In this document: piece after piece, positions 50,064-64,000 of the stretch
How positions within the stretch are numbered: position 1 is the first letter of the stretch
Layout: the number at the start of each line of letters is the position of its first letter
Source of the DNA: Candidatus Latescibacterota bacterium
GTDB taxonomy: Bacteria > Latescibacterota > UBA2968 > UBA8231
Direction: 5' to 3'
NCBI GenBank assembly: GCA_965223905.1
Contig: CBDCXV010000011.1
Coordinates: 1,248,001 to 1,312,000 of the forward strand
Length of the DNA: 64,000 nucleotides
Position numbers and translations under genes: made by a program
Notes under the pieces: generated by a model
Databases searched by the model: none
Told to the model about the DNA's origin: nothing
What the model saw: the letters and a program-made list of their open reading frames with translations, nothing else

Positions 50064-50492
50064 CAGGAACGCCCATACCCTGGCGGGCAGGGAAGCTCCC
50101 AGCCTAGGGACCGCTGAACCCGCGGAATTCTGGTAGCGGCACCCTGTTATGGCGATTATCTCGCCGGCGCGGCCGCGCTTGCGCCAGGGTTACGTCCACC
50201 GGCTCCAGCCCCCGGACCTGTTCATTCGAGGATCTCCGTCACCATGGCTCAGCAAAGGTAAGCCCGGCACGCCGTCATGAGCCTGCGAGCCGAGGCTGCG
50301 CGCAGCCGCCCCGATTTCATCCTGTTCGTGCCCCGAGGAGGAGGAGGCTATGGAAAGCCCCATACCCCGGCGCCGGAAGCAGCCGTACCACCTCCTGGGT
50401 CAAGGTCTGTGAGGCCACGGGCACTGCCGGGAACGGACCCCTGGTCGCCCGAGGCGACAGTGCACCATCGTAATCAATGGGGAGTTGAGTTC

Positions 50493-53400
50493 ATGAAGGC
50501 GGCAATCATCTGTTCCATCGCGCTGTTCGGGTCTTTCGGCCATGCAGAAGCCCAACCCCTGGTCGAGGGCCGGGTGCGGCTTTCATCGGGCCAACCCGCG
50601 GCCGGCGCCCAGGTGCGGCTGTTCGATCTGTCCGATCTGCGGCGCTCGCTGGCAACGACGACCGATGAGACCGGGTACTTCGCCCTGCCCTCCGGGGCAT
50701 TGCGGGTGCCCGCGGCCGGGGACCTCCACTTGGGGCCGAACTACCCCAATCCGTTCAACCCCTCCACAGTCATCCCGTTCCACCTGCCGGCCTCGACGCC
50801 GGTGCGGCTCGAGGTCTTCAACCTCCTCGGGCAGCGGATCGCCACCCTGGTCGACGGGGAGCTGACCGCCGGATATCACACGGTTCCCTGGAACGGCACG
50901 GACGCCGCGGGGCGGCCGGTCGCCGCGGGGGTCTATCTCTACAGGCTGAGCTTTCCCGGAGGGGCGGAGACCGGGTCGATGGTGCTGACCGACGGCCGGG
51001 CGGGTGCTCCGGGCGCTGGCGGGGGCGCTCCTGCCGCGGCCCCCGGGCAGACCGCGGAGTCCGCCCCGGTGTACGGGCTGACGGTAGCCGGACCTGGCCT
51101 GGAGGCCTTCGTAGACCCGGCCTTCCGGGTGGAGGCAGGCATGGCCCCGGTCGACCTCGTCGTCGAAGCCCTCGGGGGCAGGCCGCGCCCCAAGGCCGCG
51201 GCAGCCTCCGGGCTGTTGGGGGACGTCGACAACAGCGGTCTCGTCGATATCGTCGACGCCCTGCTCCTCGCCATGTACAGCGCCAACCCCTCCATCGTCA
51301 TGCCCAACGGCGGCGACATCTCCCTGGGGGACGTCAACCAGGACGGCACGACCGACTTCACCGACGCCTGGCTCGTCGCCAGATACAGCCTCGATCCGTC
51401 CGATCCCTTGCTACCCCCGGGGATCGGAGAGCCGCTGGCTCCCCCCGCGGCCCTGTCGCCGGACCCGTCCACCGTCGAGTTCGGGAACGACGGCGCCTGG
51501 CACGCCTTCACGGTCCAGGCCGGCGAGCCCGTCGTGGTGGTGGCAAACCCGGGGGAGGGCGCCCCGCTGATGGAGATCAGCGCCAGGAGCACCCGGTTCA
51601 GCTTCTGTCCGGCCGAAGCCGGCGACGCCGTATCGACCGAGGACGGCAGCTCCATCTACCTGTCCGGGTGCGAGGCCGGCACCGGCACGGTCGAGCTGCG
51701 GCGGGCGGAGGACCAGTCGGTCCTGCGGACCTACACCATCGAGATCGAGGATACCGGCGGCAGCCCCCCCGACCTCGTCGTCGACCTCCCTGCGGTCAGC
51801 GACAGCAGCCTGAATACCGGACAGTCCTTCACCCTGAGCGTCACCGTCCGCAACCAGGGGGAGAAGGAATCGGAGGCGACCACCCTGCGCTACTACCGCT
51901 CTACGAACCGAACGATCTCCAGCTGGGATACGGAAGCCGGCACCGGGGCGGTGGGTGCTCTTTCCGCGGCCGGCACCGGCACCTTGTCGATCTCCCTGAC
52001 GGCACCGGCGAGCCCGGGAACCTGGTACTACGGCGCCTGTGTCGAGAGCGTCAGCGGAGAGGGGAACACGCGGAACAACTGCTCCCGAGGGGTGAAGGTG
52101 ACCGTCGGCAGCGCCGACCTCATCGTCGAATCCCCTGCGGCCAGCGACGCCAGCCCGGACGCCGGGGCGGCCTTCACCCTGAGCGCTACGGTCCGCAACC
52201 GGGGAGACAGCCGCTCGACCCTGACGGTGCTGCGCTACTACCGCTCGGATGACGCCACGATCTCGACCAGCGACACGCAGGTCGGCACCGACGCGGTGAG
52301 CTCCCTTTCGGGAAACGCCACCAGCCCCGAGTCGGTGCGGTTGACGGCACCGGCGAACCCGGGAACCTGGTACTACGGGGCCTGCGTCAGGCCCGTGCCC
52401 GGAGAATCCGACACCGGCAACAACTGCTCCGCGGCGGTCGAGGTGACCGTCGCAAGCTCCGACCTGGTGGTCGAGTCCCCCGCGGTCAGCGACGGCAGCC
52501 CGGAGACCGGGGCCTCCTTCACCTTGAGCGCCACGGTCCGCAACCAGGGCAGCAGCCAGTCCGCCTCGACCGTGCTGCGCTACTACCGCTCGCAGGACGC
52601 GGCGATCTCCACGAGCGACGCACAGGTGGGAACCAACGCTGTGGGTGCCCTCCCCGCCTCCGGCACCAGCGCCGAGTCGATCTCCCTGAGGGCTCCGGCG
52701 AGCCCGGCAACCTGGTACTACGGGGCCTGCGTTTCCCCGGTGTCAGGGGAATCCGATACCGGGAACAACTGTTCGTCCGCGGTGGAAGTAACGGTCACGG
52801 CCCCGGAGCCTCGGCTCTCGAAGATGTACTGGACCGACTGGGGAACCGACAGGATTCGCCGCGCCGATCTCGACGGCTCTCAGGTGGAGGAGCTGGTTGC
52901 CGGGGCGGGGCTTGAGGGCCCGGACGGGCTGGCCATCGACGCGGACGGCGGCAGGATGTACTGGACCGACGCGGGCACGGCCAAAATCCAGCGGGCCAAC
53001 CTGGACGGATCCGGGGTGGTAGACCTGGTGACCTCCGGACTCACCATACCCGCGGGGATTGCCCTCGACACGGATGCCGGCAAGATGTACTGGGCCGACG
53101 CCGGCACCGGGAAGATCCAGCGCGGCAACCTCGACGGCTCCGGGGTCGAGGACCTGGTCACCCGGGACGACGGGCTGGCCTTTCCCACGGGGCTGGCTCT
53201 CGATCCGGCGGGAGGGAGGATCTACTGGACGGACCCCGGCACCGACAGGATCCAGCGCGGAAACCTCGACGGCTCCCAGGTGCAGGACCTCGTTACCAGC
53301 GGGATCGACAATCCATCGGCGATCGCCCTCGATTTGAACGGGGGCAGGATGTACTGGACCGACCGCGGCACCCGGAAAATCCAGCGGGCAAACCTCGATG

Positions 53401-53615
53401 GTTCTGGGGTGGAAGACCTGGTCCCCAGGGACCTGGATCTTCCCGGCGGGATGGCGCTGGACCTGCGTGGCGGAAAGATGTACTGGACCGACCGGGGCAC
53501 CGGAAGGATCCTGCGGGCAAACCTCGACGGATCCGGGGTCGAGGAACTCCTGACCAGCGCGGTCGGGTTGGAGAATCCGTCGGGGTTGGCCCTGGCTCCG
53601 GAGGCCGGGAATTGA
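50493..53615 (+). CDS. Secreted modular protein: FlgD-Ig, dockerin, 3 CARDB, YWTD (LDL-receptor class B) propeller
   Basis: Signal peptide from ATG 50493; NYPNPFNPST; GDVDNSG and GDVNQDG dockerin; 3x DL.V..P..TL.ATVRN..LRYYRS..YYGACV..NNCS; 6x MYWTD..I.RANLDGS. Confidence 0.88.
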   Translation: MKAAIICSIALFGSFGHAEAQPLVEGRVRLSSGQPAAGAQVRLFDLSDLRRSLATTTDETGYFALPSGALRVPAAGDLHLGPNYPNPFNPSTVIPFHLPASTPVRLEVFNLLGQRIATLVDGELTAGYHTVPWNGTDAAGRPVAAGVYLYRLSFPGGAETGSMVLTDGRAGAPGAGGGAPAAAPGQTAESAPVYGLTVAGPGLEAFVDPAFRVEAGMAPVDLVVEALGGRPRPKAAAASGLLGDVDNSGLVDIVDALLLAMYSANPSIVMPNGGDISLGDVNQDGTTDFTDAWLVARYSLDPSDPLLPPGIGEPLAPPAALSPDPSTVEFGNDGAWHAFTVQAGEPVVVVANPGEGAPLMEISARSTRFSFCPAEAGDAVSTEDGSSIYLSGCEAGTGTVELRRAEDQSVLRTYTIEIEDTGGSPPDLVVDLPAVSDSSLNTGQSFTLSVTVRNQGEKESEATTLRYYRSTNRTISSWDTEAGTGAVGALSAAGTGTLSISLTAPASPGTWYYGACVESVSGEGNTRNNCSRGVKVTVGSADLIVESPAASDASPDAGAAFTLSATVRNRGDSRSTLTVLRYYRSDDATISTSDTQVGTDAVSSLSGNATSPESVRLTAPANPGTWYYGACVRPVPGESDTGNNCSAAVEVTVASSDLVVESPAVSDGSPETGASFTLSATVRNQGSSQSASTVLRYYRSQDAAISTSDAQVGTNAVGALPASGTSAESISLRAPASPATWYYGACVSPVSGESDTGNNCSSAVEVTVTAPEPRLSKMYWTDWGTDRIRRADLDGSQVEELVAGAGLEGPDGLAIDADGGRMYWTDAGTAKIQRANLDGSGVVDLVTSGLTIPAGIALDTDAGKMYWADAGTGKIQRGNLDGSGVEDLVTRDDGLAFPTGLALDPAGGRIYWTDPGTDRIQRGNLDGSQVQDLVTSGIDNPSAIALDLNGGRMYWTDRGTRKIQRANLDGSGVEDLVPRDLDLPGGMALDLRGGKMYWTDRGTGRILRANLDGSGVEELLTSAVGLENPSGLALAPEAGN

Positions 53616-53656
53616 GATCTGGTACCGTGCGGAGTTTTTTATCAAAGGAGATGTAA

Positions 53657-53911
53657 TTGATGAACGAATCAGCAATACGACTCCGTATCGAGCCTTTGGA
53701 TGAAGGAGGGTTTCTCGCCACGAGCCCTGACGTTCCAGGCTTGGTTGCACAAGGTCGCAGCGTCACTGAAGTCGCGGAGATAGCACAGGGGCTGGCACGA
53801 AAGATTGCAGAGTCGTGCATTGAACACGGCGACCCCCTGCCGCACGCATTGAGATCACACCCGAAGGATCACACCGAAATCGATCTGATGGTACCCGTCA
53901 GCGTTCCGTAA
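53657..53911 (+). CDS. HicB-like antitoxin
   Basis: IEPLDEGGFLATSPDVPGLVAQGRS..E. Confidence 0.85.
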   Translation: MMNESAIRLRIEPLDEGGFLATSPDVPGLVAQGRSVTEVAEIAQGLARKIAESCIEHGDPLPHALRSHPKDHTEIDLMVPVSVP

Positions 53912-53970
53912 TGGGACGACTCTCCGGGTTCAAGTATCGAGAAGTCGTTTGGCGCCTGCGATATTTTTAG
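53911..53970 (+). pseudogene. Truncated HicA toxin (19 codons)
   Basis: TAATG-coupled MGRLSGFKYREVVWRLRYF*, a typical HicA N-terminus that stops before the GSH motif. Confidence 0.65.
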
Positions 53971-54095
53971 CACAAGCTTACCCTCCTGCGGTAGGCGCCT
54001 AAAAGAATCTTCAGCTTCGAATTGGCCAATGTGGCACCCATGCCGGACATGCGGGGGCGCCATTTCCAGGACATTGAAACTCTCCTGAATCCAGC

Positions 54096-54248
54096 GGCCA
54101 GGTTTTGTCCCCTTGCGAAAACCGGTCCACCCCGGCAACTGCCCGCCATTTCAACTTTACAGCAATTGTCTGCATTGCCATGCGGGGCAGACGATTGAGT
54201 CCTGTCAATGCGTAGCACTTAAAAAGCGGTCAGATTTTGTCCCCTTGC
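54096..54248. promoter_or_regulatory. Two GGnCA-N5-TGTCCCCTTG boxes upstream of the Omp85 operon
   Basis: GGCCAGGTTTTGTCCCCTTGC from 54096 and GGTCAGATTTTGTCCCCTTGC from 54228. Confidence 0.5.
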
Positions 54249-54470
54249 ACTTTTTTCCGGCCCCCAGGTCGACTGCTCGCTTGTTTCAATTCTTTGGAAT
54301 CTTATGCATCCCATGCAGGTCAGACATGAACCCTGTCGATCTGAAGCACGCTGAATGGTGTCGGTCTATGAGCCGGCCTTTCTGATTTTACGGTTTCGAT
54401 CTCCAGATTGCGTTTGACGCGCCCCACGCGTCCTGACTAGGATACAGGCCATGCAAAAGGTGAACCCTGC

Positions 54471-55829
54471 ATGATAACCAAAGGTGTCACGATGCTTCGA
54501 TCCCTTTCCCTTGTCCTGGTGTTGACCGCACTGGCTGCGCCGGCTGTGGGGCAAACCGTCCCCACCGCAGCCGCGGAAACCGACACAACCGACGTCTACG
54601 AGACGCGGAACAACCACGTGCTCGCCTTTCCGAAGTACGTCTGGAACGCCCTGGTGTTCCCGCTCGGCAAGTTCACCATCTGGCTCGAACGGAAAGAGGT
54701 TCTCCAGCGGCTGATCGAGATGTTCACCTTCCAGGACATCTTCGAGCTGTATCCGAACGCGACCCTGGGTGGGGAAACCGGAACCGCCGGCGGATACGAG
54801 ATGTTTTACACCAATCTGTTCGGACGCGGAAAAGGGATCTCGACCAGCCTGATCGCCAACCGCTCCAACTACAGCTGGGTCGTCCTGTACGAGGACCCGG
54901 GGATCGGCGGCGGTCCCTGGTACTGGAACGCCTCTGTCGAAGCGCTGAAGACGGGTTATGAGGACGCCACCATAAACGGCGAGCTGCGTGGGTCGGGGTC
55001 CCTGCTCGAGCACGAACAGAGAGATACCAGGATTTCTTTTGGGCGCCGCTCCAACTACGGCGAGACCGAGGGGTACGAACCGGAAGCGGTTCTCGAGCTG
55101 CGGCTGTCCCACGGCTTCCGCGAGTTCGCGGCAGGCGATCTCCACCCCGGCGACTTTCCCGGCCTGAACGAGTCGGTCAACCTGTTCTCGGTCGGCGCCA
55201 TGGCGGCCTTCGACGACCGGGACTTCAAGCCGCCGGCCGCCTCGATCAGCCTTCCGCTGAACTACCAGCTGCCCGGGCGGGTCCTTCTTTTCGCCGACGA
55301 CCGCTACTACAGCTTTCGCGACACCGCCTTCCCCGAGCGCGGAGGGCTCGCCCGCATCGAGGCGGATTACGCAGCCGGCTCCGAGGACGTCCGGTATTTC
55401 CGTTACACAGCCGAGCTCCAGCGCTTCTTCACCCTGTTTTTCAGGAACCGCATCCTCGGGATCAGGGCGCGGCTCGAGAAGGCGCATGCCCTGGGAGACG
55501 TCAGCTTCATCCCCTATTCCGACATGCCCACTCTGGGCGGCGATGGGCAGTTGCGCGGGTACCGGCGCGGATTCTTTCGCGACACGGGCAGCCTGCTGTT
55601 CAGCGCCGAATACCGCTACCCGATCTGGGACACCTGGAACGCCGTCCTGTTCTGGGACGAAGGGCAGGTGTTCGGCAAGTACGGCGACCTCGAACCGGGC
55701 GGGTTCGAGTACAGCTACGGCGCCGGCATCAGCGTGCGCACGGAGCGTTCCTTCCTGTTCGGGGTGCGCATCGCCCGCAGCAAGGAGGAGAAGGCGTTGA
55801 CCGGCTTCTCGCTGGAAAAGGAGTTCTGA
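54471..55829 (+). CDS. Omp85/BamA-TamA family outer-membrane barrel without obvious POTRA domains
   Basis: Signal peptide; LGG..LRGY..FRD, AEYRYP, F.D.G.V, YG.G motifs; terminal Phe. Start may be 54492. Confidence 0.85.
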   Translation: MITKGVTMLRSLSLVLVLTALAAPAVGQTVPTAAAETDTTDVYETRNNHVLAFPKYVWNALVFPLGKFTIWLERKEVLQRLIEMFTFQDIFELYPNATLGGETGTAGGYEMFYTNLFGRGKGISTSLIANRSNYSWVVLYEDPGIGGGPWYWNASVEALKTGYEDATINGELRGSGSLLEHEQRDTRISFGRRSNYGETEGYEPEAVLELRLSHGFREFAAGDLHPGDFPGLNESVNLFSVGAMAAFDDRDFKPPAASISLPLNYQLPGRVLLFADDRYYSFRDTAFPERGGLARIEADYAAGSEDVRYFRYTAELQRFFTLFFRNRILGIRARLEKAHALGDVSFIPYSDMPTLGGDGQLRGYRRGFFRDTGSLLFSAEYRYPIWDTWNAVLFWDEGQVFGKYGDLEPGGFEYSYGAGISVRTERSFLFGVRIARSKEEKALTGFSLEKEF

Positions 55830-57505
55830 TGGGCTCTCGGCGAGTCGCCATGCTGCTGGTTCCTGTGCTGTTGCTGCCGATCGCCGGCATGGCCGCCCCG
55901 GAGCTGACCGCCGATCCCGTCAAGTGGTTCGACGCCGACAACAAGCCGGTCCCCGAGCCGGCCGAGGCCGAGGAGAACAAGGTCTGGGACTTCATTGACA
56001 AATCCTCCTTTTACCAGGTCGGCAAGGTGCTGGACCTGGGGTGGACCGCGCGTCGAGTCGGAGACCTCCTCGGCGTCGTCGGACCGCGCCAGGCCGACAA
56101 CGTCAACGCCCTCGACGAGGTCCCCAACTCCTCCTGGTTCACCAACCGGCACTTCCTGCTGCCGATGACCCTGGAAGAGCTGGCGGAAGGACCCGGTTTC
56201 GCCGAAGCCGACGACAGCGGCCCCTGGGAGATCGTCGCCGGCAAGTTCGAGGGGATCACCGCGGGTTTCACCATCAAGGACGCCTCGAAGCGGTACTTCC
56301 TGCTCAAGTTCGATTCCGAAGGGAACAACGAGATGGGATCCGGGGCCGAGGCGGTCGCCACCAAGGTGCTGTACGCGGCCGGCTACAACGTTCCCCACAA
56401 CTCCGTCCTCTACTTCGATCCCGGACAGCTGCAGATCGGACCGAAGGCCAGGGTGCCGGCGAAAGACGGCGGCAAGCGGCCGATGACCCCGAAGGACCTC
56501 CGGGAAATCCTCGCCCACATCACCCCGCAGCCCGACGGCACCCTGCGCTGCCTCGCCAGCCAGTTCCTCACGGGAAAACCGGTCGGCGTCTTCAACTACA
56601 ACGGGCGACGCAGGGACGACCCCAACGACCGGGTCGACCACGAGCACCGGCGCGAGCTGAGGGGGCTGCGCGTCATCGGCTCCTGGCTCAACGATGCCGA
56701 CCGCCGGGCGGCCAATACCCTGGACATGTACGTGACCGGGGCGGACGGCCGCCGCTACGTCCGCCACTACCTGATCGACATGGGCTCCGCCCTCGGCAGC
56801 GGCAGCTGGAGACCGCACCAGCCCAAGCACGGCAACGAGTACATGGTGGACCCGCGCACGATCTTGCGGTCGCTGGTATCGCTGGGGTTCTACATGAAGA
56901 AGTGGGAAGAGCCGGTGCCGATGCCGTACATCTCGCTCGGATACTTCGAGAACGAGACCTTCCGTCCCGGGGGCTGGGTGCCGGACTATCCCAACCCGGC
57001 GTTCGAACGCTGCACCAACCGGGACGGGTACTGGGGCGCCAAGATCGTCATGGGCTTCCGCGACGACGAAATCCGCGCCATGGTCGAGAGGGGGCGCTAC
57101 TCCGATCCGGGCGCCACCGCGGAGCTGACCCGGCTCCTGGCCGAACGCCGGGACATGATCGGGCGCTACTGGTTCGAGCGCGTCAACCCGCTGGATCGCT
57201 TTGAAGTGGAAGACAGCCGGCTTCGGTTCGTCGATCTCGCCGTGGAGGGGGAGCTGGTACCGCGCGAATCGCGGCAGTGGCGGTATGCCGTTGTCGATGC
57301 AGACGGGGACCGTATTGCGGAGCCGCGTGTTATATCCGAGCCGGTCATCCCGATCGGCGAGGAGGCGCGGGCGGGGCAGTTCTTCGGCTACCGGATCCGG
57401 AGCCGCAGCGGCGAGAGCGGGAAGTGGAGCAAGAAGACCACGGTGTTTCTATACAAGCACGAGGACGGCCGCCTGCAACTGGTGCGGATCGACCGGGAAG
57501 AGTGA
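55829..57505 (+). CDS. Secreted protein with atypical (HipA/PI3-4K/CotH-like) kinase motifs
   Basis: Signal peptide; EGITAGF..LLKFD, GAEAVATK..AAGYNVP, WLNDADRRAAN, YLIDMGS; translationally coupled (TGATG) to Omp85. Confidence 0.7.
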   Translation: MGSRRVAMLLVPVLLLPIAGMAAPELTADPVKWFDADNKPVPEPAEAEENKVWDFIDKSSFYQVGKVLDLGWTARRVGDLLGVVGPRQADNVNALDEVPNSSWFTNRHFLLPMTLEELAEGPGFAEADDSGPWEIVAGKFEGITAGFTIKDASKRYFLLKFDSEGNNEMGSGAEAVATKVLYAAGYNVPHNSVLYFDPGQLQIGPKARVPAKDGGKRPMTPKDLREILAHITPQPDGTLRCLASQFLTGKPVGVFNYNGRRRDDPNDRVDHEHRRELRGLRVIGSWLNDADRRAANTLDMYVTGADGRRYVRHYLIDMGSALGSGSWRPHQPKHGNEYMVDPRTILRSLVSLGFYMKKWEEPVPMPYISLGYFENETFRPGGWVPDYPNPAFERCTNRDGYWGAKIVMGFRDDEIRAMVERGRYSDPGATAELTRLLAERRDMIGRYWFERVNPLDRFEVEDSRLRFVDLAVEGELVPRESRQWRYAVVDADGDRIAEPRVISEPVIPIGEEARAGQFFGYRIRSRSGESGKWSKKTTVFLYKHEDGRLQLVRIDREE

Positions 57506-57528
57506 GCGCAAGGAGAAAGGAATAGGGA

Positions 57529-58977
57529 ATGGACGTTCTGGGGTTCGAGTTTTTCCAGGGTTTCATGCATTACCTCGGCGTGCTGCAGTGGCCGCTGGTC
57601 GTCGTCTTCCTGCTGTTCATCGCCTGGCAGATACGGGGTTTCGCGCCGGAGGAGCGGCTGCAGACCGGCCTGATGTTTTCCTACTTCTTCCTGGTGATCA
57701 CGACCTTCTGGATCCTCAAGCCGATCAAGAAGGGGCTCTTCATCAGCTACTACAAAGAGGTCGGCGGCTTCGACCTGCTGGGCTGGTGGCAGTTCGACGC
57801 GGCGCAGGCCGAGCTGCTTGCCAAAGTCCTCAACATGGCGGTCGCCGCCGCGGCGGTCGCCGTCTTCACCCTTCTCGCCCGCTCCTTCCGTCGCCAGCAG
57901 CTCACCTTCATTCTGTCGGGCTTCTTCATTCTCTGTTACCTGGCCTACAGCTTCCTCCTCGACAATGCCGGCGGCGGCACCGTCTGGACCTTCTACCTGT
58001 TCGGCGACCTGTTCAGCACGTTGATGGTCGCCACCTTCTTCGCCTTCCTCAACGACAGCGTCGATCCTTCCTCCGCCAAGCGGCTCTACGGGCTGATCGG
58101 TCTCGGGGGGGTTTCGGGAGGTTTCTTCGGCAGCGCCGTCGTCGGCGTCAACGTCAAGAGCCTCAGCCCGGCGCTGTCCATGTGGTTGTGCCTGGCGATC
58201 GCCGTCGCCATCGCGCTTGTCGCCCTGGCCGCGGGCCGGGTAGTAAGCCGCAAGCTGGCGGCGCAGGAAACCGGGGGAAGCAAAGCGGAGGATGCATCCG
58301 ATTCTCAAGCCGCCCAGACTGAAGATCAGCCCCAGGGGAATCCGGCCTGGGAAGGTGCGCGGCTCGCCCTGCGCTCGCGGTATCTACTGTCGGTGGTGGC
58401 CATCGTCGGTCTCTACGAAATGGTCTCCACCATAATGGATTTCCAGTTCACCTCGACGGTGCTCCACTACCTCGACGGCCCGCAGATCGGAGAGCATTTC
58501 CCGCGCGTGTTCACGTTCACCAACATGGTCGCCCTCGTCGTTCAGCTGTTTCTCACCAGCTTCGTGATGACGCGGTTCGGTGTCGGCCCGGCGCTGCTGT
58601 TCCTTCCGGTTGCTGCCCTTCTGGGTTCGGCAGGATTCCTGATCGCCCCGGTGCTCCTCCTCGGGAGCCTGTTGAACACGACCGACAACGGCTTCAGCTA
58701 CTCGATCAACCAGTCGGCGAAGGAAGCCCTCTACGTTCCCACCACGCGGGACGAGAAGTACAAGGCCAAGGCTTTCATCGACATGTTCGTGCAGCGGTTC
58801 GCCAAGGCACTGGCCGTCGGCCTGAGTCTTTTGATTACGACCCTGTTTGCAGGGTATTCGAGCATTCGCTGGTTGTCGCTGGTGACCGCCGCCATCCTGT
58901 TGTTGTGGATCCTCGCCGCCCGTTACGCAGGCCGGAGTTTCCGCGAGAAGGAGGAGGGGGCTGCCGCGTCGGTGTGA
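57529..58977 (+). CDS. NTT/TLC family (Npt1-like ATP/ADP translocase) MFS transporter
   Basis: About 12 TM segments; ILKPIK, F..LND..AKRLYGLI, YSINQSAKEALYVP..EKYKAK..ID..R. Confidence 0.82.
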   Translation: MDVLGFEFFQGFMHYLGVLQWPLVVVFLLFIAWQIRGFAPEERLQTGLMFSYFFLVITTFWILKPIKKGLFISYYKEVGGFDLLGWWQFDAAQAELLAKVLNMAVAAAAVAVFTLLARSFRRQQLTFILSGFFILCYLAYSFLLDNAGGGTVWTFYLFGDLFSTLMVATFFAFLNDSVDPSSAKRLYGLIGLGGVSGGFFGSAVVGVNVKSLSPALSMWLCLAIAVAIALVALAAGRVVSRKLAAQETGGSKAEDASDSQAAQTEDQPQGNPAWEGARLALRSRYLLSVVAIVGLYEMVSTIMDFQFTSTVLHYLDGPQIGEHFPRVFTFTNMVALVVQLFLTSFVMTRFGVGPALLFLPVAALLGSAGFLIAPVLLLGSLLNTTDNGFSYSINQSAKEALYVPTTRDEKYKAKAFIDMFVQRFAKALAVGLSLLITTLFAGYSSIRWLSLVTAAILLLWILAARYAGRSFREKEEGAAASV

Positions 58978-59378
58978 CAGACAGAAGAGACGAAACGGGA
59001 CCGAAGTCATTCAGTCCCCCGGCGGCCGTGTGACGCCGATCCTCGGGGTGCTCGCTTCTTTGGTCGGAACGAAGGGCACGACCGCTCGATCCGTATGACC
59101 TGCGGTCTAAGGCCGTCCAAAAGCTTAACTCCGATCCGGGCAGCACCTGGAATAGCCTCAGCTGAGAACTGGGCGCTGTCATTCCGCTAGGAACGGATGG
59201 CGGTGGCAAACCTGCGAGGCGACCGTCGCCTTGCCCCCCTGATCTATCGTTCGACCCTGGACCGTTGGTAAGGTCCATGTTCTGAGTCTAATGGCTGATT
59301 CTATCTATATTATCCCCCAAAATAAACCCAGGGGGATTCGGCGGCTCCTGGAGGATGCTCTGCAACTTAAGTGCCTGC

Positions 59379-60302
59379 TCAAACATGGACACCGGGGATC
59401 GATGGTTCTCCTGAGGGGTGTTCGAGCGAGAAATGGCGGTAGGCAAACTCTATCCGGTCGTTCTTGCCGAAGGCGTCGACGATTTTCCCCACGATCTCGC
59501 TGGAGATGCGTTCCCGCTCCACCGCAATGGACTTGTACCGCAGCCGCATCGTTATGCCGGAATGAAAGAATTCAGCACGGACGAACGGAGTCTCTCCGGT
59601 CTCCTCGATGATCTCCGGGGTCACCTCGGAGGCGCAGTCGATCAATGTCTGTTCCGACAGCCGGTATTCCGACTGATAGGAGATACGGACCGGAACCTCG
59701 TCGAGTATGTACTTGGCTTCCTGGGAAACTGCGTAGTTGGTGACCATCTGGTCGAACAGTACGGCATTGGGGATAAGAACCGCTCGATTGGATTTTTCTT
59801 CCCCGCCGATAGTCCCGCCCACTTCCCCCAGAAGAATATGGGTGGGACTTATGTCCAGCACGTCCCCCCGCACTCCCTGAAGTATGATCCGGTCGCCGAT
59901 CTGGAAGGGCCGTTTGATCATAACCATGAGCCAGGCGGCCACTCCGGTGACCGGCCGTTGGAGAGACCAGCCCAGGATCATGCTGAGGAAAGCAGCGCTT
60001 ATCCCCATGGCCGCGAATGAACCGGACAAGCTGACGACAATCAGAATGATCCCCGCCAAAAGAAAGGTGTACTTCAACAGGGAGTGGACCCGGTGGATCT
60101 GCACCTCCCGGCGATTCTGGGCTCGCATGGCTCCCAGGACCACACCCTTGACCGTTTTGTAGATGATATAAATGACGACAAGCGCCAAAGTTGCAGGCAG
60201 GAGGTATAGTATCACTTCAAGGATATCCCTCACCAGTTCAGGGACATGGTGGGAGACCCATCCCTCGGTGCTGTTCAGCCAGTCAGTTATTACCTGTGGC
60301 AT
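59379..60302 (-). CDS. Small-conductance mechanosensitive channel (MscS family)
   Basis: TM N-terminus; RPFQIGDRI..G.V.DI, IPNA.L..V.N; purine-rich RBS before ATG 60302. Confidence 0.88.
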   Translation of the reverse strand: MPQVITDWLNSTEGWVSHHVPELVRDILEVILYLLPATLALVVIYIIYKTVKGVVLGAMRAQNRREVQIHRVHSLLKYTFLLAGIILIVVSLSGSFAAMGISAAFLSMILGWSLQRPVTGVAAWLMVMIKRPFQIGDRIILQGVRGDVLDISPTHILLGEVGGTIGGEEKSNRAVLIPNAVLFDQMVTNYAVSQEAKYILDEVPVRISYQSEYRLSEQTLIDCASEVTPEIIEETGETPFVRAEFFHSGITMRLRYKSIAVERERISSEIVGKIVDAFGKNDRIEFAYRHFSLEHPSGEPSIPGVHV

Positions 60303-60697
60303 CGGTCGGTTCCTCTTTCCTCTTCCTTGGCGATGGTAAAATGCCTTTGGTACCTCGGTTTCATCGGGATGCCGCGCCAAAGGCATCCCGGTCCACGGCC
60401 GGTCCGGCTCCCCCCTTCCCTGACGCGCCGTCCGCGATCCTTTGATCAAAAAAGAAGCCTGTCATCTGCAAGCTATCCGGACAGAAAAGCGCGTCAACGC
60501 ACCCGGGGTTCTGGTTCCGTGCCCAGGAAGGCCGCTGGCTTTACCGACGATCCGGATGCTCACATCGAGACAATCCGGTGCCTGATCCCCTCAAGGGTAA
60601 ACCTGCCCATGCCCTGGCTACCATCCTCAACAGGGCTTCCGGTGAGTCGGGGCGGGATCCGCGTCTGTAGGGGAAGCGGCTTCGCTGGAATTAAAAG

Positions 60698-60761
60698 GGA
60701 CAGTAACTGTCCGCATTGAGATTTTTTTTTACATGCTGGACGCAACGGACACCCCCTGTCC
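60698..60761. promoter_or_regulatory. Two GGACA-N5-TGTCC palindromes, probable WYL-regulator binding sites
   Basis: GGACAGTAACTGTCC (60698-60712) and GGACACCCCCTGTCC (60747-60761) directly upstream of the WYL gene. Confidence 0.7.
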
Positions 60762-60798
60762 CCTTGGAGCCCATCTTTATCGTCGGGAGGATGAAGCT

Positions 60799-61794
60799 AT
60801 GCTCATTGCCGATGCTATCCACAAGGCGGATCGACTCGAACAGATAAAGGTACTGTTCCGGCGGCGGCCCGAGGGGGTAGGGACCGGTGAAATCGCCCGG
60901 CTGTTGGGGGTCAGCCAACGGACCGCCCGGCGCTATGTGAAGGAGCTGTCGGAGCACGGACGGCTGCCGGTGTACCGGGAAGGCCGTGTCTGGAAGTTGG
61001 TGGAAGGCGGGCACATCGACCTGCTTCGCCTCCAGCTGAACCTCGACGAGGCCCTCTCGCTCTACCTGGCGGCGCGGATGCTGTCCGCCTACAGCGACAA
61101 GCACAATCCGCACGTGGTAGCATCCCTGCTCAAGCTCGCGGCAACCTTGCCCGACGCCATCGGGGCGCACGTCGAGCAGGCGGCCGTGGCGGTTTCCCAA
61201 AGACGGCTTGCCCCGGACTACATGAAAGTCCTCGAAGGTCTCACCCGGGCCTGGGCCGGCCGGCGGCAGGTACAGATCGTTTATCGCGATCCCATCACCG
61301 GGGCGCGCTCCGAGCGCCTGTTCGACCCCTTTTTCATCGAGCCTTCCTTCTTGGGCTATTCCTGCTACGTGTTCGGGTTCGATCACTTCCGCCGGGCGAT
61401 CCGCTCCTTCAAGGTCGAGCGGCTGGAAGAGGTCGAGGTGTTGGATTCCCGTTTCGAGCCGTTGCCGGATTTCGATCCCTACGACTACCTCAGGCACGCC
61501 TGGGGGATCAGGGGCGGCGACGAGGTGGTGGAGGTGAAATTGCGGTTTTCCATGAACGCGGTCTATCGGGTGAATGAATCCGACTGGCCGGGAGTGATCG
61601 CCCGGGAGGAAGACCGGGAGGGGCGTTGTACGCTGACGTTCCTGGTCAATCACGTTCTGGAAATCAAGTCCTGGATCAGGGCATGGGGACCCGAGTGCGA
61701 GGTGCTGGGCCCGGAGGAGTTGCGCCGGGAGATCGGGGAGGAGATGAAGGCGGCGACGGAACTGTATACGAACAACCCGGGAGTAGGGAGCTGA
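60799..61794 (+). CDS. wHTH-WYL-WCX transcriptional regulator
   Basis: EIARLLGVSQRTARRY HTH; I.Y..R..DP..YVFG..RSFKVERL WYL; WIRAWG..CEVL.P.ELR WCX; GGAGG RBS. Confidence 0.92.
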   Translation: MLIADAIHKADRLEQIKVLFRRRPEGVGTGEIARLLGVSQRTARRYVKELSEHGRLPVYREGRVWKLVEGGHIDLLRLQLNLDEALSLYLAARMLSAYSDKHNPHVVASLLKLAATLPDAIGAHVEQAAVAVSQRRLAPDYMKVLEGLTRAWAGRRQVQIVYRDPITGARSERLFDPFFIEPSFLGYSCYVFGFDHFRRAIRSFKVERLEEVEVLDSRFEPLPDFDPYDYLRHAWGIRGGDEVVEVKLRFSMNAVYRVNESDWPGVIAREEDREGRCTLTFLVNHVLEIKSWIRAWGPECEVLGPEELRREIGEEMKAATELYTNNPGVGS

Positions 61795-61944: not shown

Positions 61945-64000
61945 ATGAAGAATGCAATCGGCGGTCTCATGTGGCTGTTGTCGAGCCTGCACGCAGGAGC
62001 GGAGCCACTTGTGGAGGGGCGGGTCAGGCTGGCCTCGGGGGGACCGGCGGCCGGGGCGCAGGTGCTGCTGTTCGACCTGACCGACCTGCGCCTGGCGCCG
62101 GTCGCTGCGACCACCGATGAAGCGGGGTACTTCGCGCTGCCTTTCGGAGGGTTGCGGTCATGGGTGGCGGTTTTTCCGGAGCGGTTCGAGTTGGGGCAGA
62201 ACTATCCCAATCCATTCAATCCTTCCACCATAATCCCCTACCAGCTCCCGGCCTCGACCCGGGTGCGGCTCGAGATCTTCAACATCCTTGGACAGCGGGT
62301 GACGACCCTGGCCGACGGAGAGCGGGCGGCCGGCTTTCACACGGCTCGTTGGCACGCCACCGATTCCGCGGGGCGCGCCGTGGCCGCCGGGGTCTACTTC
62401 TACCGGCTGAAGGGCGAGGGGGTTCATCAGACCCGGCGCATGGTGTTGATCGACGGGCAGGCGGGGATTCCTTCGGCAGGGCCGGGCGGTCCGCCCGCCG
62501 CAGTCCTGGAGGCAGAGGAAACAACCCCGGTCTTCGGATTGGCCGTCTCGGGTGCGGGGCTTGTCCCCTACGTCGACCCCGCCTTCCGGGTGGAGGCGGG
62601 CATGGCTCCGGTGGACATCGTCGTCGAAGCTTCCGGCGGGATCCTGCATGCGAAGGTGGCCTCAGGCGGGATCCTGGGCGACGTCGACAACAACGGCCGG
62701 GTCGACATTTTCGACGCCCTGCTGGTTGCCGTGTACAGCGCCAATGCCAACCTCGTCATGCCGAACAACGGCGATATAACCCTCGGTGACGTCAACCGGG
62801 ACGGCCAGACGGATCTCACCGACGCCTACCACATCGCCACCTACACAGTGGATCCCTCCGATCCGACGCTGCCCGCAGGAATCGGGGAGGCCCTGGTCCA
62901 AGGGACGGCATCGCTGTCCCCCCTTCCCTCCACCGTCTCCTTCCAGGACGACGGAGTCTGGCACCGGTTTACGGTCCAGGCCGGCGAGCCGATCGTGGTG
63001 GTGGCCAATCCCACCGGAACCACCCCGCGTGTGGAGATCAACACCAGCAGCGGCTCCAATTACTGTCCGGCGGAAGCCGAGGACGACCGGGCGCGCCAGG
63101 ACGGTGAGGAAGTCTACCTCGCCGGCTGCTCCTCTGGTACGGGTACAGTTGAACTGCGACGGGCGTCCGACCAGACCGTCCTGCAAACCTATACCTTCAC
63201 GATACAGGGACAGGGAACAGGGGGAGGGGGAGGCGGCAATGCCCCCGACCTGATTGTCGAGACCCCTACGGTCACCAACAGCAGCCCGACCGCCGGCGCC
63301 TCCTTCACCCTGAGGGCCAGAGTCCGAAACCAAGGTGCGGCCCGGTCCAGCTCGACCACCCTGCGCTACTACCGCTCCACCGACGCGACGGTTTCCACCA
63401 GCGACACCCAGGTCGGCACCGACCTCGTGAGCAGCCTGTCCGCTTCCCGAACCAGCTCCGAGTCGATCAGCCTCCGCGCTCCCTCCAGCGCCGGAACCTA
63501 CTACTACGGCGCCTGTGTCGAGAGCGTCAGCAGCGAAACCAATACCGGGAACAACTGCTCCGCAGCGGTGACCGTAACCGTGGGCGCCGCACCGGCCCCG
63601 GATCTCCTCGTCGATGCTCCTACGGTCAGCAACAGCAGCCCGGCTGCCGGCGCCTCCTTCACCCTGAGGGCCACCGTACGAAACCAGGGTGCGGCCCGGT
63701 CCGGCTCAACCACCCTGCGCTACTACCGCTCCACCGACGCCACCGTTGACTCCAGTGACACCGAAGTCGGCACCGACCTGGTCAGCAGGCTGTCCGCTTC
63801 CCGAACCAGCTCCGAGTGGATCACCCTACGCGCACCTTCCAGCGCCGGTACCTACTACTACGGGGCCTGTGTCGAGAGCGTGAGCGGGGAAACCAATACC
63901 GGAAACAACTGCTCCGCTGCCGTAACCCTAACCGTGGGCGCCGCACCGGCCCCGGATCTCGTCGTCGATGCCCCAACGGTCACCACCAGCAGCCCGGCTG
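61945..64000 (+). CDS. Secreted FlgD-Ig/dockerin/CARDB protein, paralog of 50493-53615; runs off the window end
   Basis: Open frame from ATG 61945 (MKNAIGG..EPLVEGRVRL..NYPNPFNPST..GDVDNNG..); CARDB units at a 354-bp period (63244, 63598, 63952). Absent from the ORF track because it has no stop in the window. Confidence 0.88.
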   Translation, partial: MKNAIGGLMWLLSSLHAGAEPLVEGRVRLASGGPAAGAQVLLFDLTDLRLAPVAATTDEAGYFALPFGGLRSWVAVFPERFELGQNYPNPFNPSTIIPYQLPASTRVRLEIFNILGQRVTTLADGERAAGFHTARWHATDSAGRAVAAGVYFYRLKGEGVHQTRRMVLIDGQAGIPSAGPGGPPAAVLEAEETTPVFGLAVSGAGLVPYVDPAFRVEAGMAPVDIVVEASGGILHAKVASGGILGDVDNNGRVDIFDALLVAVYSANANLVMPNNGDITLGDVNRDGQTDLTDAYHIATYTVDPSDPTLPAGIGEALVQGTASLSPLPSTVSFQDDGVWHRFTVQAGEPIVVVANPTGTTPRVEINTSSGSNYCPAEAEDDRARQDGEEVYLAGCSSGTGTVELRRASDQTVLQTYTFTIQGQGTGGGGGGNAPDLIVETPTVTNSSPTAGASFTLRARVRNQGAARSSSTTLRYYRSTDATVSTSDTQVGTDLVSSLSASRTSSESISLRAPSSAGTYYYGACVESVSSETNTGNNCSAAVTVTVGAAPAPDLLVDAPTVSNSSPAAGASFTLRATVRNQGAARSGSTTLRYYRSTDATVDSSDTEVGTDLVSRLSASRTSSEWITLRAPSSAGTYYYGACVESVSGETNTGNNCSAAVTLTVGAAPAPDLVVDAPTVTTSSPA

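Follow-up and report, generated by a model that had tools for sequence, protein, structure and literature searches.

The two inverted repeats at 60698 and 60747 are, judged by sequence and position, part of the promoter of a wHTH-WYL-WCX regulator gene. Autoregulation of this gene is well supported by sequence comparison, because the proximal repeat keeps its position, repeat and recognition helix change together, and the repeat was found, among the genomes tested, only in regulator-carrying ones. We consider it very probable that the box is bound by the WYL protein and that this protein controls its own gene, and a WYL-type regulator with a binding site in its own promoter is a known kind of circuit. 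In the reading we prefer, the regulator would activate a special type of promoter, and to this reading as a whole, activator direction included, we assign a probability of about 0.5. The initial annotation, which had proposed autoregulation, shared control of an Omp85-kinase-NTT operon and a link to DNA damage or phage stress, is partly supported.

Four boxes and their frequency in the genome

The window (the whole stretch of 64 kb that was analysed) contains two perfect copies of GGACA-N5-TGTCC and two copies with one mismatch, as the initial annotation had described.

54096-54110, + strand only: one-mismatch box core GGCCAGGTTTTGTCC
54228-54242, + strand only: one-mismatch box core GGTCAGATTTTGTCC
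60698-60712, no strand assigned: distal WYL box GGACAGTAACTGTCC, a perfect palindrome in the sequence, 49 bp upstream of the proximal box
60744-60767, + strand: proximal WYL box with its flanks, AAC-GGACA-N5-TGTCC-CCTTGG, whose core GGACACCCCCTGTCC (60747-60761) is a perfect palindrome; proposed binding site from sequence, model score and conservation

The annotated continuation CCTTG was found directly 3' of three of the four boxes, and the 60698 box is followed by GCATTG instead. Within the 64-kb window, GGNCA-N5-TGTCC gave 6 strand matches against 0.78 expected, and none of 100 shuffles reached 6. The genome-wide scan called for in the initial annotation showed no enrichment of this loose motif: it gave 87 strand matches, while base composition predicts 99 and the reversed control gave 83. 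The enriched form is longer and consists of an A/T tract, AACGGACA-N5-TGTCC-(C/G/T)CTTGG, a short gap and (T/C)AT(C/A)TT. A box model, trained partly on sites of this genome so that their high scores are built in but the gap to background is not, gave 7 sites of at least 25 bits among 15.8 million positions, with a background of up to 17.5 bits. Two sites fell inside the gap between 17.5 and 25 bits, one at 24.2 bits and the other being the distal WYL box, which reached 22.2 bits under this proximal model.

Promoter of the WYL gene

60722-60730, + strand: T9 run in the sequence between the distal and proximal boxes
60772-60777, + strand: hexamer CATCTT, a putative -10 element by sequence, exactly 10 nt after the proximal right arm
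60785-60791, + strand: ribosome-binding site GGGAGGA
60799-61794, + strand: gene for the wHTH-WYL-WCX transcription factor (331 aa, assigned by Pfam)

The WYL gene most likely starts at ATG 60799, behind this ribosome-binding site, and the two boxes begin 101 and 52 nt before it. The proximal box scored 34.6 bits, which was rank 3 of 15.8 million positions, and it occupies the place where a -35 element would sit. A both-armed box was present 51-64 nt before the start codon in all 15 orthologous WYL loci scanned in the close clade (clade A). Moreover, the right arm was followed after 10 nt by a -10-like hexamer in all 16 aligned promoter-type sites. This hexamer is mostly TATCTT or TATATT in the orthologues and regulon sites and has C as its first base in this genome; its position 2 was A in 16/16 sites and its position 6 was T except in L051. 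The -10 assignment and the transcription start are predictions from these sequences. The hexamers 16-18 nt further upstream in the 16 sites read GACAnn, ACAnnn or CAnnnn and match TTGACA at up to about 1/6, and a promoter scan of 60440-60810 found no sigma-70-type promoter. Most of the regulon sites and orthologous promoters inspected also have an A- or T-rich tract on the upstream side of the box, and it may act like an UP element.

When a model was trained on 5 distal boxes from other genomes, the distal box came out first with 37.2 bits. Only the clade with at least 90% identity (6 loci) has such a box, 97-101 nt ahead of the start codon. Upstream of the distal box, L017, a duplicated copy of the WYL gene in G001, gradually loses its likeness to the other copies, in keeping with a promoter module. 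Orthologous distal boxes have GGTCA or GGACG as the left arm, and the right arm shows no compensating change, which disfavours an RNA hairpin.

Regulator and recognition helix

The WYL protein matched the Pfam families HTH_11 (5.8e-7), WYL (3.3e-12) and WCX (3.2e-16), as well as the WYL models of PADLOC. The closest sequences with solved structures were PafBC (6sj9, 9e-8, the best match) and a DeoR-family regulator (8tp8, 5e-7), which we take to be DriD; both matches are weak. BrxR and CapW were absent from the matches of this search at E up to 0.01, an absence that proves little.

In clade A, the recognition helix S(Q/E)RTARR goes together with the repeat GGACA-N5-TGTCC, and the helix of the protein studied here carries R41 and R45. 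In the distant clade B (8 loci), the helix is HR(S/T)T(V/I/A)YRD and the repeat at the same place is TGTCGCA-N5-TGCGACA, of which L008 and L018 have perfect copies and L009-L014 degenerate ones.

Distribution of the box and predicted regulon

The motif ACGGACA-N5-TGTCC gave 18 matches in 5 regulator-carrying relatives (0 for the reversed control) and 0 matches in 5 genomes that lack a WYL orthologue by protein search, although the compared genomes are related to each other and these co-occurrence counts are not independent. One genome without box and regulator, G004, belongs to the same genus as the box-bearing G020. The 18 matches against 0, the proximal box kept in 15/15 loci and its change with the helix argue for the autoregulation that had been proposed.

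The same promoter type precedes 6 other genes in this genome, and all 6 N-termini, judged by eye, are signal-peptide-like or lipoprotein-like. These genes encode 2 CARDB/T9SS-cargo-like proteins, 1 outer-membrane beta-barrel, 2 copies of a DUF2279 lipoprotein and 1 small secreted protein, the gene of which adjoins a gene for a WD40 protein. Similar genes follow another 7 promoter-type sites in G001, G002 and G020, and orthologues of the CARDB family beginning with 'MKAAIIC...' are among them. In L078, three such boxes lie around the WYL gene; one is its own, and the other two precede a T9SS-type cargo gene and a lipocalin-like gene. Several target genes adjoin transposase or integrase genes or look frameshifted, and some of them may be decaying copies.

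61945-63999, + strand: gene for a secreted protein directly downstream of the WYL gene (Pfam CarboxypepD_reg, FlgD_ig, Dockerin and CARDB)

The N-terminus of this protein, MKNAIGGLMWLLSSLHAGAEPLVEGRVRL, belongs to the same family as those encoded after the boxes at G000:C11:1344106 and C9:787425, and no box of its own was found before the gene. Since the predicted targets encode surface or envelope proteins, the regulon looks like one of secreted proteins rather than one of DNA repair or phage defence. For the suggested connection to DNA damage or phages nothing was found: PADLOC detected no defence protein among the 8 neighbouring genes, and the targets are secreted or envelope proteins.

Element upstream of the Omp85 operon

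54093-54116, + strand: copy 1 of the element, AGCGGCCAGGTTTTGTCCCCTTGC, from sequence and comparison (box core 54096-54110)
54225-54248, + strand: copy 2 of the element, AGCGGTCAGATTTTGTCCCCTTGC, from sequence, followed by CAC and a T6 run (box core 54228-54242)
54414-54443, + strand: sigma-70-like promoter TTGACG-N18-TAGGAT, from promoter scan and conservation, about 50 nt before the Omp85 start codon
54492-55829, + strand: gene for an Omp85-family protein (Pfam Omp85)
55829-57505, + strand: gene for a 558-aa protein of no known family, the 'kinase' of the initial annotation
57529-58977, + strand: gene for a TLC/MFS-type NTP/NDP transporter-like protein (Pfam TLC/MFS_1)

The 558-aa protein had no family in Pfam or NCBIfam, and Atlas gave weak kinase-like leads (0.79-0.81). 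The site TTGACG-N18-TAGGAT was the only promoter-like site in 53900-54500. G001, G002, G041, G042 and G045 retain both of its hexamers around a spacer that varies, and a weaker version (TTGAGG...TAGGGT) is found in G019. It is likely the promoter of the Omp85 operon.

The two Omp85-side boxes belong to one direct repeat of 24 nt, AGCGGYCAGRTTTTGTCCCCTTGC, which lies within a tandem duplication of 132 bp with units at 54093-54224 and 54225 to about 54356; this duplication was seen only in this genome. Because a single element was tandemly duplicated, the two boxes count as one independent occurrence. The Omp85-side pair is one genus-specific element in two tandem copies. Just upstream of it are the fossil 3' end of a gene for a secreted protein and a HicA-like frame that is truncated. 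The caveat that the boxes might belong to a lost gene fits this flank, but no gene remnant was found around the boxes themselves.

The element resembles a distal-type WYL box and may bind the regulator. That it is truly bound, with the operon under control of the WYL protein in this genus, is the view of the initial annotation and remains tentative. The arms of the element read GG(C/T)CA-N5-TGTCC, and TGTCCCCTTG is common to the element and the proximal box. The left arm GGTCA is also that of some genuine boxes, namely the proximal box of L007 and the distal boxes of L069 and L070, but the GGCCA arm of copy 1, G001 and G002 was found in no WYL-gene box. Copy 2 with its T-run aligned to the distal box and T-run of the WYL orthologues L070, L069 and L017 with z of 9.6, 6.3 and 5.0, respectively, values reached by 0/200 shuffles each. 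Copy 1 is identical in G002 and matches at 22/24 positions in G001. Conservation of the 24-nt element was 22-24/24 compared to 42-67% in its surroundings, in three closely related species and for a window picked after the alignment had been seen, and the element was kept in both copies after the duplication. Furthermore, the element is confined to the genus in which the WYL gene follows the operon at a distance of about 5 kb.

On the other hand, the element scored within background under both box models. Copy 1 reached 9.5 bits (rank 188) and copy 2 reached 13.5 bits (rank 61) under the box model, and under the distal model the element had rank 6, in the noise band of 14-18 bits and in reverse orientation only. 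No -10-like hexamer was found at the required distance after the element, which places it outside the proposed promoter type, and it lies about 170-300 bp upstream of the conserved sigma-70-like promoter. The orthologous operon had no box in 4/4 genomes outside the genus (G019, G041, G042 and G045), the last three of which carry a WYL gene that is 87-90% identical; within the genus the element is kept.

A second tentative explanation is that the element has nothing to do with the WYL regulator and looks like the box by chance; it would then bind another factor or be a small conserved part of a genus-specific 400-bp insertion. The genome-background frequency of the loose motif, the 22 occurrences of TGTCC(C/T)CTTG in the genome and the roughly 60 other positions that outscore the element under the box model would all fit such a chance likeness. 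Conserved islands of similar length occur in the same intergenic region, e.g., a 23-nt run further downstream, and outside the box and T-run no similarity of copy 2 to the WYL loci was found. However, the 40-nt alignment to the distal modules of L069 and L070 is well beyond shuffles. In addition, the genome has 5 instances of GGNCA-N5 directly followed by TGTCCYCTTG, namely 3 genuine promoter-type boxes and these 2 copies, and the element is 6.5 kb away from the WYL gene. The conserved element and its alignment to the distal box speak for the shared control that had been annotated, while the background score, the missing hexamer and the distance from the promoter speak against it; control of the Omp85 operon by the WYL regulator is weakly supported and doubtful.

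Direction of regulation and comparison with known WYL regulators

The promoter type we propose consists of an A/T-rich tract, the dyad AACGGACA-N5-TGTCC-CTTGG at the -35 place, a gap of 10 nt and (T/C)AT(C/A)TT, with no recognisable -35. By analogy with known WYL activators, a regulator dimer on this dyad would most likely help the housekeeping RNA polymerase to start, and the boxes at 60698 and 60747 would then give positive autoregulation of the WYL gene, as with DriD, PafBC and SiwR. Some ligand probably controls the regulator through the WYL domain.

DriD of Caulobacter crescentus (didA, bapE and CCNA_03891 promoters) is described as a homodimeric wHTH-WYL-WCX protein, an architecture like the one here, with sites that lie at a constant distance from the -10 and overlap the -35 position in promoters without a recognisable -35, one of which carries two sites as the WYL gene does (PMC13004042). 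For DriD, activation and an ssDNA ligand have been shown, whereas activation here is proposed by analogy. The box sequences differ, and DriD targets are DNA-damage genes, unlike the secreted and envelope proteins predicted here.

For PafBC, we likened the -26 element to the right arm TGTCC, 10 nt from the -10-like hexamer, using the consensus spacing of RecA-NDp promoters. This mycobacterial WYL-family activator of RecA-NDp promoters uses the -26 element just upstream of a canonical -10 without a -35, and it recognises a GTC triplet by a pair of arginines spaced four residues from each other (PMC8635444), to which R41 and R45 would correspond. PafBC is a heterodimer on an asymmetric single element, where it inserts between sigma and DNA. 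A homodimer is expected here, because a single chain goes with a symmetric dyad. The PafBC regulon is a DNA-damage response, unlike the predicted envelope regulon. The third activator, SiwR of Mycobacterium smegmatis, is a homodimer that binds a 19-bp imperfect palindrome between -35 and -10 before a neighbouring operon (PMC10693628). SiwR controls two adjacent DinB-like genes in genotoxic stress, whereas dispersed envelope genes and the regulator's own gene are predicted here.

A repressor of the BrxR/CapW kind, whose dimer blocks RNA polymerase until a WYL ligand releases it, is in our view unlikely but deserves weighing, and would mean negative autoregulation and de-repression of the surface-protein genes. 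BrxR is described as a wHTH-WYL-WCX protein whose sites near its own promoter are inverted repeats spaced by 5 bp, and it represses even through a second box with one poorly conserved arm, one arm being sufficient (PMC9122601). This geometry matches the one found here and is the closest among the systems compared, and by analogy the second box of BrxR, which has R-BOX1 and R-BOX2, is the best precedent for the degenerate Omp85-side boxes. CapW, of the same architecture, is likewise described as a repressor (PMC11662680). A protein bound to the dyad, which spans about -37 to -23, could keep sigma region 4 from the DNA; a dyad over the core promoter suits a repressor equally, and the upstream A/T tract could supply basal activity to these promoters without a -35. 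The matches to PafBC and DriD are also weak (E about 1e-7).

However, BrxR represses sterically from a box situated downstream of the -10, with arms of 11 bp compared to 5-8 bp here. The box described here lies upstream of the -10-like hexamer at a constant distance, as in the DriD, PafBC and SiwR promoters. With no -35-like hexamer at 16-18 nt spacing, the promoters would be expected to be weak alone. BrxR regulates a phage-defence island, but PADLOC found no defence protein among the 8 neighbouring genes. Furthermore, the solved-structure search returned PafBC and WYL-domain or DeoR-family entries, not BrxR or CapW.

It is very improbable that the long motif is instead the promoter of an alternative sigma factor (e.g., an ECF factor reading AAC), with the WYL gene as a mere member and a non-binding WYL protein: in its favour are asymmetric flanks, with AAC to the left and CTTGG to the right, a fixed distance to the downstream hexamer and envelope-protein targets, which are typical of ECF regulons, but AAC and GTC are 11 nt apart compared to the ECF consensus spacing of 16-17 nt, the distal box has the dyad and no downstream hexamer, the box was found among the tested genomes only where the WYL gene is present, and the core forms a perfect dyad around a 5-bp spacer, the sequence of the dyad varying along with the WYL recognition helix.

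Gene Layout and Frequency of the Boxes

A check of the sequence confirmed all four boxes of the initial annotation in place. Two of them lie upstream of the Omp85 operon (GGCCAGGTTTTGTCC at 54096 and GGTCAGATTTTGTCC at 54228), and two perfect palindromes precede the gene of a wHTH-WYL-WCX regulator, hereafter the WYL gene (GGACAGTAACTGTCC at 60698, the distal box, and GGACACCCCCTGTCC at 60747, the proximal box). The gene layout was derived from Pfam and NCBIfam and is listed below.

Table. Genes of the window near the boxes
50277-53615, plus strand: CARDB/LDL-receptor-repeat protein, probably secreted, judging from its domain types
53657-53911, plus strand: weak HicB-like frame (sub-threshold in Pfam, E 0.0055)
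54492-55829, plus strand: Omp85-family protein
55829-57505, plus strand: 558-aa protein with no Pfam or NCBIfam family; its nearest named Atlas clusters are Fam20C-like, HipA-like and PI3/PI4-kinase-like, weak kinase-like leads only (0.79-0.81)
57529-58977, plus strand: TLC/MFS nucleotide-transporter-like protein
59379-60449, minus strand: MscS-like channel
60799-61794, plus strand: wHTH-WYL-WCX regulator (HTH_11, WYL and WCX)
61945 onward, plus strand: CarboxypepD_reg/FlgD_ig/Dockerin/CARDB protein with a signal-peptide-like N-terminus

In the window, the motif gave six strand matches compared to 0.78 expected, and at least six were reached in 0 of 100 shuffles. In the whole genome of 7.92 Mb, GGNCA-N5-TGTCC gave 87 strand matches compared to 99 expected by composition and 83 in the reversed control. 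The initial annotation had itself named a background-like frequency as evidence against a shared operator, and the genome-wide frequency of the loose motif written there does match background. Perfect palindromes were mildly enriched (30 strand matches, 17.9 expected, 12 in the control). Among the 87 matches we recognized a long form, which consists of an A/T tract, AACGGACA-N5-TGTCC-(T/C/G)CTTGG, a short gap and TATCTT, and which is highly specific.

The 558-aa protein is conserved across the class, with 50-92% identity among the orthologues found. A paralogous pair of Omp85 and 558-aa genes (81% identity) lies at G000:C11:1364604-1370327, that is, on contig C11 of this genome, and has a PPK2 polyphosphate kinase gene as its neighbor. 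Here the pair and the PPK2 gene are separated by an inserted DUF2279 lipoprotein gene that carries a promoter-type WYL box; G001, from the same genus, has no such insertion. The roughly 250 bp of non-coding DNA 5' of the distal box (60450-60700) is kept in G002, also of this genus, and partly in one G001 copy; this DNA could hold the promoter of the MscS-like gene or a small RNA.

At a depth of 2-7, metatranscriptome contigs from four runs of one study covered stretches of the Omp85 operon and of the WYL gene, and one contig covered 60563-60755. They were left out as evidence, because starts, strand and level cannot be read from them and their gaps prove nothing (54167-54433 is without a contig).

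A Promoter Module Conserved Upstream of the WYL Gene

The WYL protein carries a winged helix-turn-helix at its N-terminus (Pfam HTH_11, residues 12-60, E 5.8e-7, plus other HTH models), a central WYL domain (PF13280, residues 144-214, 3.3e-12) and a C-terminal WCX domain (PF25583, residues 243-319, 3.2e-16), and the WYL models of PADLOC matched it at 7e-31 and 3e-29. Its nearest sequences of solved structure were PafBC and 8tp8, which we take to be DriD, at E about 1e-7, while BrxR and CapW gave no match at E 0.01 or better in the same search. The gene most likely starts at the ATG at 60799, with the ribosome-binding site GGGAGGA just 5' of it. From this start codon, the two copies of the inverted repeat GGACA-N5-TGTCC, each with a 5-bp spacer, begin 101 and 52 nt upstream.

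The upstream regions of WYL orthologues, taken from 41 related genomes and a public genome collection, shared a common order. A T-rich tract comes first, then an inverted repeat whose arms are 5 nt apart; 9-10 nt further on stands a hexamer (TATATT, TATCTT or CATCTT), and after about 20 more nt a GGAGG-type ribosome-binding site leads to the start codon. In clade A, with 54-97% protein identity, a two-armed box stood 51-64 nt 5' of the start codon at 15 of 15 loci. In clade B (eight loci, 45-50% identity) the same place carries TGTCGCA-N5-TGCGACA, as a perfect repeat in loci L008 and L018 and a degenerate one in L009-L014. With it the recognition helix changes, from S(Q/E)RTARR in clade A to HR(S/T)T(V/I/A)YRD in clade B. 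Nothing else speaks as strongly for binding of the box by the WYL protein as this joint change of box and helix; from the comparison of sequences, we estimate a probability of about 0.85 for such binding. Together with the placement of the box at all clade A loci, the joint change gives strong comparative support to the autoregulation proposed in the initial annotation.

The distance from the right arm TGTCC to the putative -10 hexamer was exactly 10 nt in 16 of 16 aligned sites. Position 2 of this hexamer was A in all 16 and position 6 was T in all except locus L051. In -10 elements these two positions are conserved best. If the hexamer is the -10, the dyad would cover about -37 to -23, the location of the -35. 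The promoter scan gave no sigma-70-type promoter within 60440-60810, and the aligned sites showed no -35-like hexamer at a spacing of 16-18 nt, with a match to TTGACA of about 1/6 or less. In L017, a duplicated copy of the gene in G001, the likeness to other copies fades upstream of the distal box, so the functional module seems to extend from the distal box through the start codon.

The Distal Box

The distal box, GGACAGTAACTGTCC, is followed by 9 nt and a T9 run and lies 49 bp upstream of the proximal box. Such distal boxes were limited to a clade of 90% identity or more (six loci), where they lie 97-101 nt before the start codon. Their left arm varies among GGACA, GGTCA and GGACG without a compensating change in the right arm, and therefore a protein site fits these boxes while an RNA hairpin or terminator does not. 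The terminator reading was rejected: 60698-60712 was flagged on the minus strand only, 9 nt separate stem and T-run on the plus strand, and compensating arm changes are missing. An Rfam search of 53600-61000 with E up to 1 returned only two chance microRNA matches within coding sequence. A small divergent gene upstream of the WYL gene was also rejected, since the similar small frames at loci L069 and L070 had no counterpart that could be found in the window.

Predicted Regulon

A weight matrix was built from 16 long-form sites of this genome and its relatives and used to scan the genome. Seven sites scored 25.1-40.2 bits, and the rest scored 17.5 bits or less apart from two: C10:2168610 (minus strand), whose left arm is degenerate, at 24.2 bits just under the accepted sites, and the distal WYL box at 22.2 bits. 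The six accepted sites away from the WYL gene, listed below, all lie 5' of frames whose N-termini, judged by eye, resemble signal peptides or lipoprotein signals. By its N-terminus, the gene directly 3' of the WYL gene is another member of this CARDB family.

Table. Accepted sites away from the WYL gene (contig:position)
C11:1344106: precedes a CARDB-family paralogue
C9:787425: precedes a truncated CARDB-family paralogue, beside an integrase gene
C10:527735: precedes a small secreted protein, which is followed by a WD40 protein; an IS110 transposase gene lies beside the site
C10:549321: precedes an OMP_b-brl_2 barrel, beside a Y2 transposase gene
C10:531329 and C11:1367052: precede two DUF2279 lipoprotein genes that are nearly identical to each other

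Across five relatives with the regulator, ACGGACA-N5-TGTCC gave 18 matches compared to 0 in the reversed control. Besides those in WYL promoters, seven of the 18 had the full promoter layout with similar genes downstream, including orthologues of the CARDB family and of the C10:527735 gene. The same motif gave 0 matches in five genomes where the WYL protein search returned no orthologue; one of these, G004, belongs to the same genus as the box-bearing G020. These counts are not independent, because the genomes are related. At locus L078 three boxes were found around the WYL gene, namely its own, one before a T9SS-type cargo gene and one before a lipocalin-like gene. Taken together, the predicted targets would be envelope, surface and secreted proteins.

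Two further G001 loci, L048 (G001:C3:998317) and L052 (G001:C3:1339010), carry ACGGACA-N5-TGTCC followed by a common 30-nt sequence and so form another repeated element. Since neither has a -10-like hexamer or a signal-peptide gene downstream, this element may be the end of a mobile element.

Activation or Repression

DriD promoters (PMC13004042) have no -35; the DriD site extends over its place and keeps a constant spacing to the -10, and two sites occur in one promoter. PafBC (PMC8635444) uses a -26 element with a -10, and two of its arginines, four residues apart, read a GTC triplet; SiwR (PMC10693628) binds a palindrome between -35 and -10. The module of the WYL gene resembles DriD promoters in its dyad at the presumed -35 location, its fixed 10 nt to the hexamer and its lack of a recognizable -35. 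The likeness to PafBC lies in R41 and R45 of the recognition helix and in the GTC of each box arm. This layout and the nearest solved sequences favor an activator, and, given binding to the box, we hold with modest confidence that the regulator would activate its own gene.

Repression is the less likely of the two readings, though with an appreciable probability: the box overlaps the -35 position, and a dyad over the core promoter is able to block the polymerase. A repeat with a 5-bp spacer upstream of the regulator's own gene, accompanied by a second box with one weak arm, also reproduces the geometry of BrxR (PMC9122601), and the inverted repeat and its spacer are likewise those of BrxR/CapW. 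However, the BrxR/CapW operator overlaps or follows the -10 or the start, whereas the box of the WYL gene ends 10 nt 5' of the -10-like hexamer. Moreover, BrxR and CapW are encoded beside a phage-defence system, whereas PADLOC assigned no defence family to the eight proteins neighboring the WYL gene.

The Element Upstream of the Omp85 Operon

The two boxes on the Omp85 side belong to a single 24-nt element, AGCGGYCAGRTTTTGTCCCCTTGC, which occurs twice in a 132-bp tandem duplication (54093-54356) of this genome only. G001 and G002 have a single copy, 254 and 267 nt 5' of the Omp85 start codon. Copies and species agree at 22-24 of the 24 positions of the element, a span picked after viewing the alignment, compared to 42-67% identity in the rest of the unit; outside the element the two 132-bp units share 53% identity. 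Copy 2 with its T-run aligned to the distal box and T-run of L070, L069 and L017 with z scores of 9.6, 6.3 and 5.0 (0 of 200 shuffles each), while its likeness to the other 11 WYL-upstream targets, and that of copy 1, was not outstanding. Its GGTCA arm also occurs in genuine boxes.

The matrix of the proximal box scored the copies at 13.5 and 9.5 bits (ranks 61 and 188), within background. A matrix of five distal boxes from other genomes found copy 2 in reverse orientation only, at rank 6 and inside the noise band of 14-18 bits. Neither copy is followed by a -10-like hexamer. In the Omp85 upstream region a single promoter-like site was found, TTGACG-N18-TAGGAT (54414-54443), about 170-300 bp downstream of the element. 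This promoter was kept in all orthologous regions read, in a weaker form (TTGAGG...TAGGGT) in G019.

Conservation before orthologous operons, which a shared operator had been expected to show, extended to G001 and G002; the element was missing in four of four related genomes outside the genus (G019, G041, G042 and G045). Of these, G041, G042 and G045 carry WYL genes of 87-90% identity. Outside the genus a secreted-protein gene ends about 100 bp 5' of Omp85, and the intergenic region holds that promoter only. The absence of the element and the short intergenic region indicate that it lies within an insertion of about 400 bp that is specific to the genus. The 22-mer of the element occurs nowhere else in the 41 genomes save at orthologous places, and its two-mismatch matches in G005 and G023 are about what chance would give by estimate.

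The motif is real at the WYL gene, and its proposed link to the Omp85 operon, which depends on this genus-specific element of uncertain function, is doubtful. Judged from the sequences, the chance that the regulator binds the element at all is about even, and control of the operon through it is the less probable, tentative part of the proposal. The conservation of the element, the alignment of copy 2 and the GGTCA arm speak for a real WYL site; the background scores, the missing hexamer, the distance from the promoter, the absence outside the genus and the lack of similarity to WYL loci beyond box and T-run speak against it.

Other origins of the element were considered and rejected. A genuine box about 260 nt upstream of the paralogous Omp85 operon (G000:C11:1367218) serves the divergent DUF2279 lipoprotein gene; an ancestral divergent lipoprotein promoter was rejected, because the G001 paralogue has the PPK2 gene directly upstream and no box. 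A fossil of the WYL cassette was not supported either, as no similarity was found outside box and T-run in 12 comparisons (best z 2.2). The spacing is unfit for a sigma-54 or ECF promoter, by eye against the consensus sequences.

At the upstream edge of the insertion we observed, by eye, a fossil 3' end of the old neighboring secreted-protein gene (53971-53994, ...KLTLLR stop). It closes a series (53657-53994) of the weak HicB-like frame, a HicA-like frame cut after about 19 codons (by eye) and this fossil. By blastn, 53970-54000 has five further matches in the genome, which may be 3' ends of genes for secreted proteins. All three species of the genus also share a second conserved island 5' of Omp85, about 23 nt long (GAAGCACGCTGAATGGTGTCGGT; 54341-54377 in the window), which runs into a short terminator-like hairpin (54360-54377) found by scan.

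Stress Link and Significance

WYL regulators have mainly been studied as switches of the DNA-damage response and of phage defence, and the initial annotation had tied the Omp85 operon to DNA damage or phage stress. This link found no support: PADLOC gave no defence family in the eight neighbors, no DevR/Cas7 was found in this genome, and the predicted targets are envelope proteins. A CRISPR link was rejected on the same absence of DevR/Cas7, and no box precedes the cas7 genes near two WYL orthologues (L072 and L077).

WYL regulators whose own promoter holds a dyad operator are already known as a kind, and what is unusual here is the predicted regulon of surface proteins. Such targets would widen the scope of control by the WYL family. 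For a WYL regulator of a candidate phylum known from metagenomes only, the analysis yields a well-defined box, the layout of its promoter and a predicted regulon of few genes. The 15-bp dyad, its constant spacing and the paired variants of helix and box are usable with synthetic DNA without culturing. Speculatively, and with a low probability as a whole, a DriD/PafBC-type WYL sensor of Latescibacterota may have been redirected from DNA damage or defence to -35-less promoters of surface and secreted proteins, among them T9SS-type cargo, an outer-membrane barrel and lipoproteins. A nucleic-acid signal inside the cell, e.g., ssDNA from damage or phage, would then remodel the surface, and in one genus a newly inserted distal-type box would begin to tie in the Omp85 operon.

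Copies and Relatives of the WYL Gene

The entire length of the WYL protein matched the first 317 positions (3-317) of the 1009-position PADLOC model Cas3c at E 1.2e-74, which suggests Cas3 proteins fused to such a regulator. Near the orthologues at L072 and L077 (79-80% identical) a DevR/Cas7 gene lies 1-3.5 kb away. On contig C3 of G001 the WYL gene is present in three full copies (907919, 983702 and 2403970) and one truncated copy (824394), with 91-93% identity, and a WYL orthologue was found in only 16 of the 41 related genomes. The multiple copies and the patchy presence suggest that the WYL gene moves or duplicates together with its promoter module.
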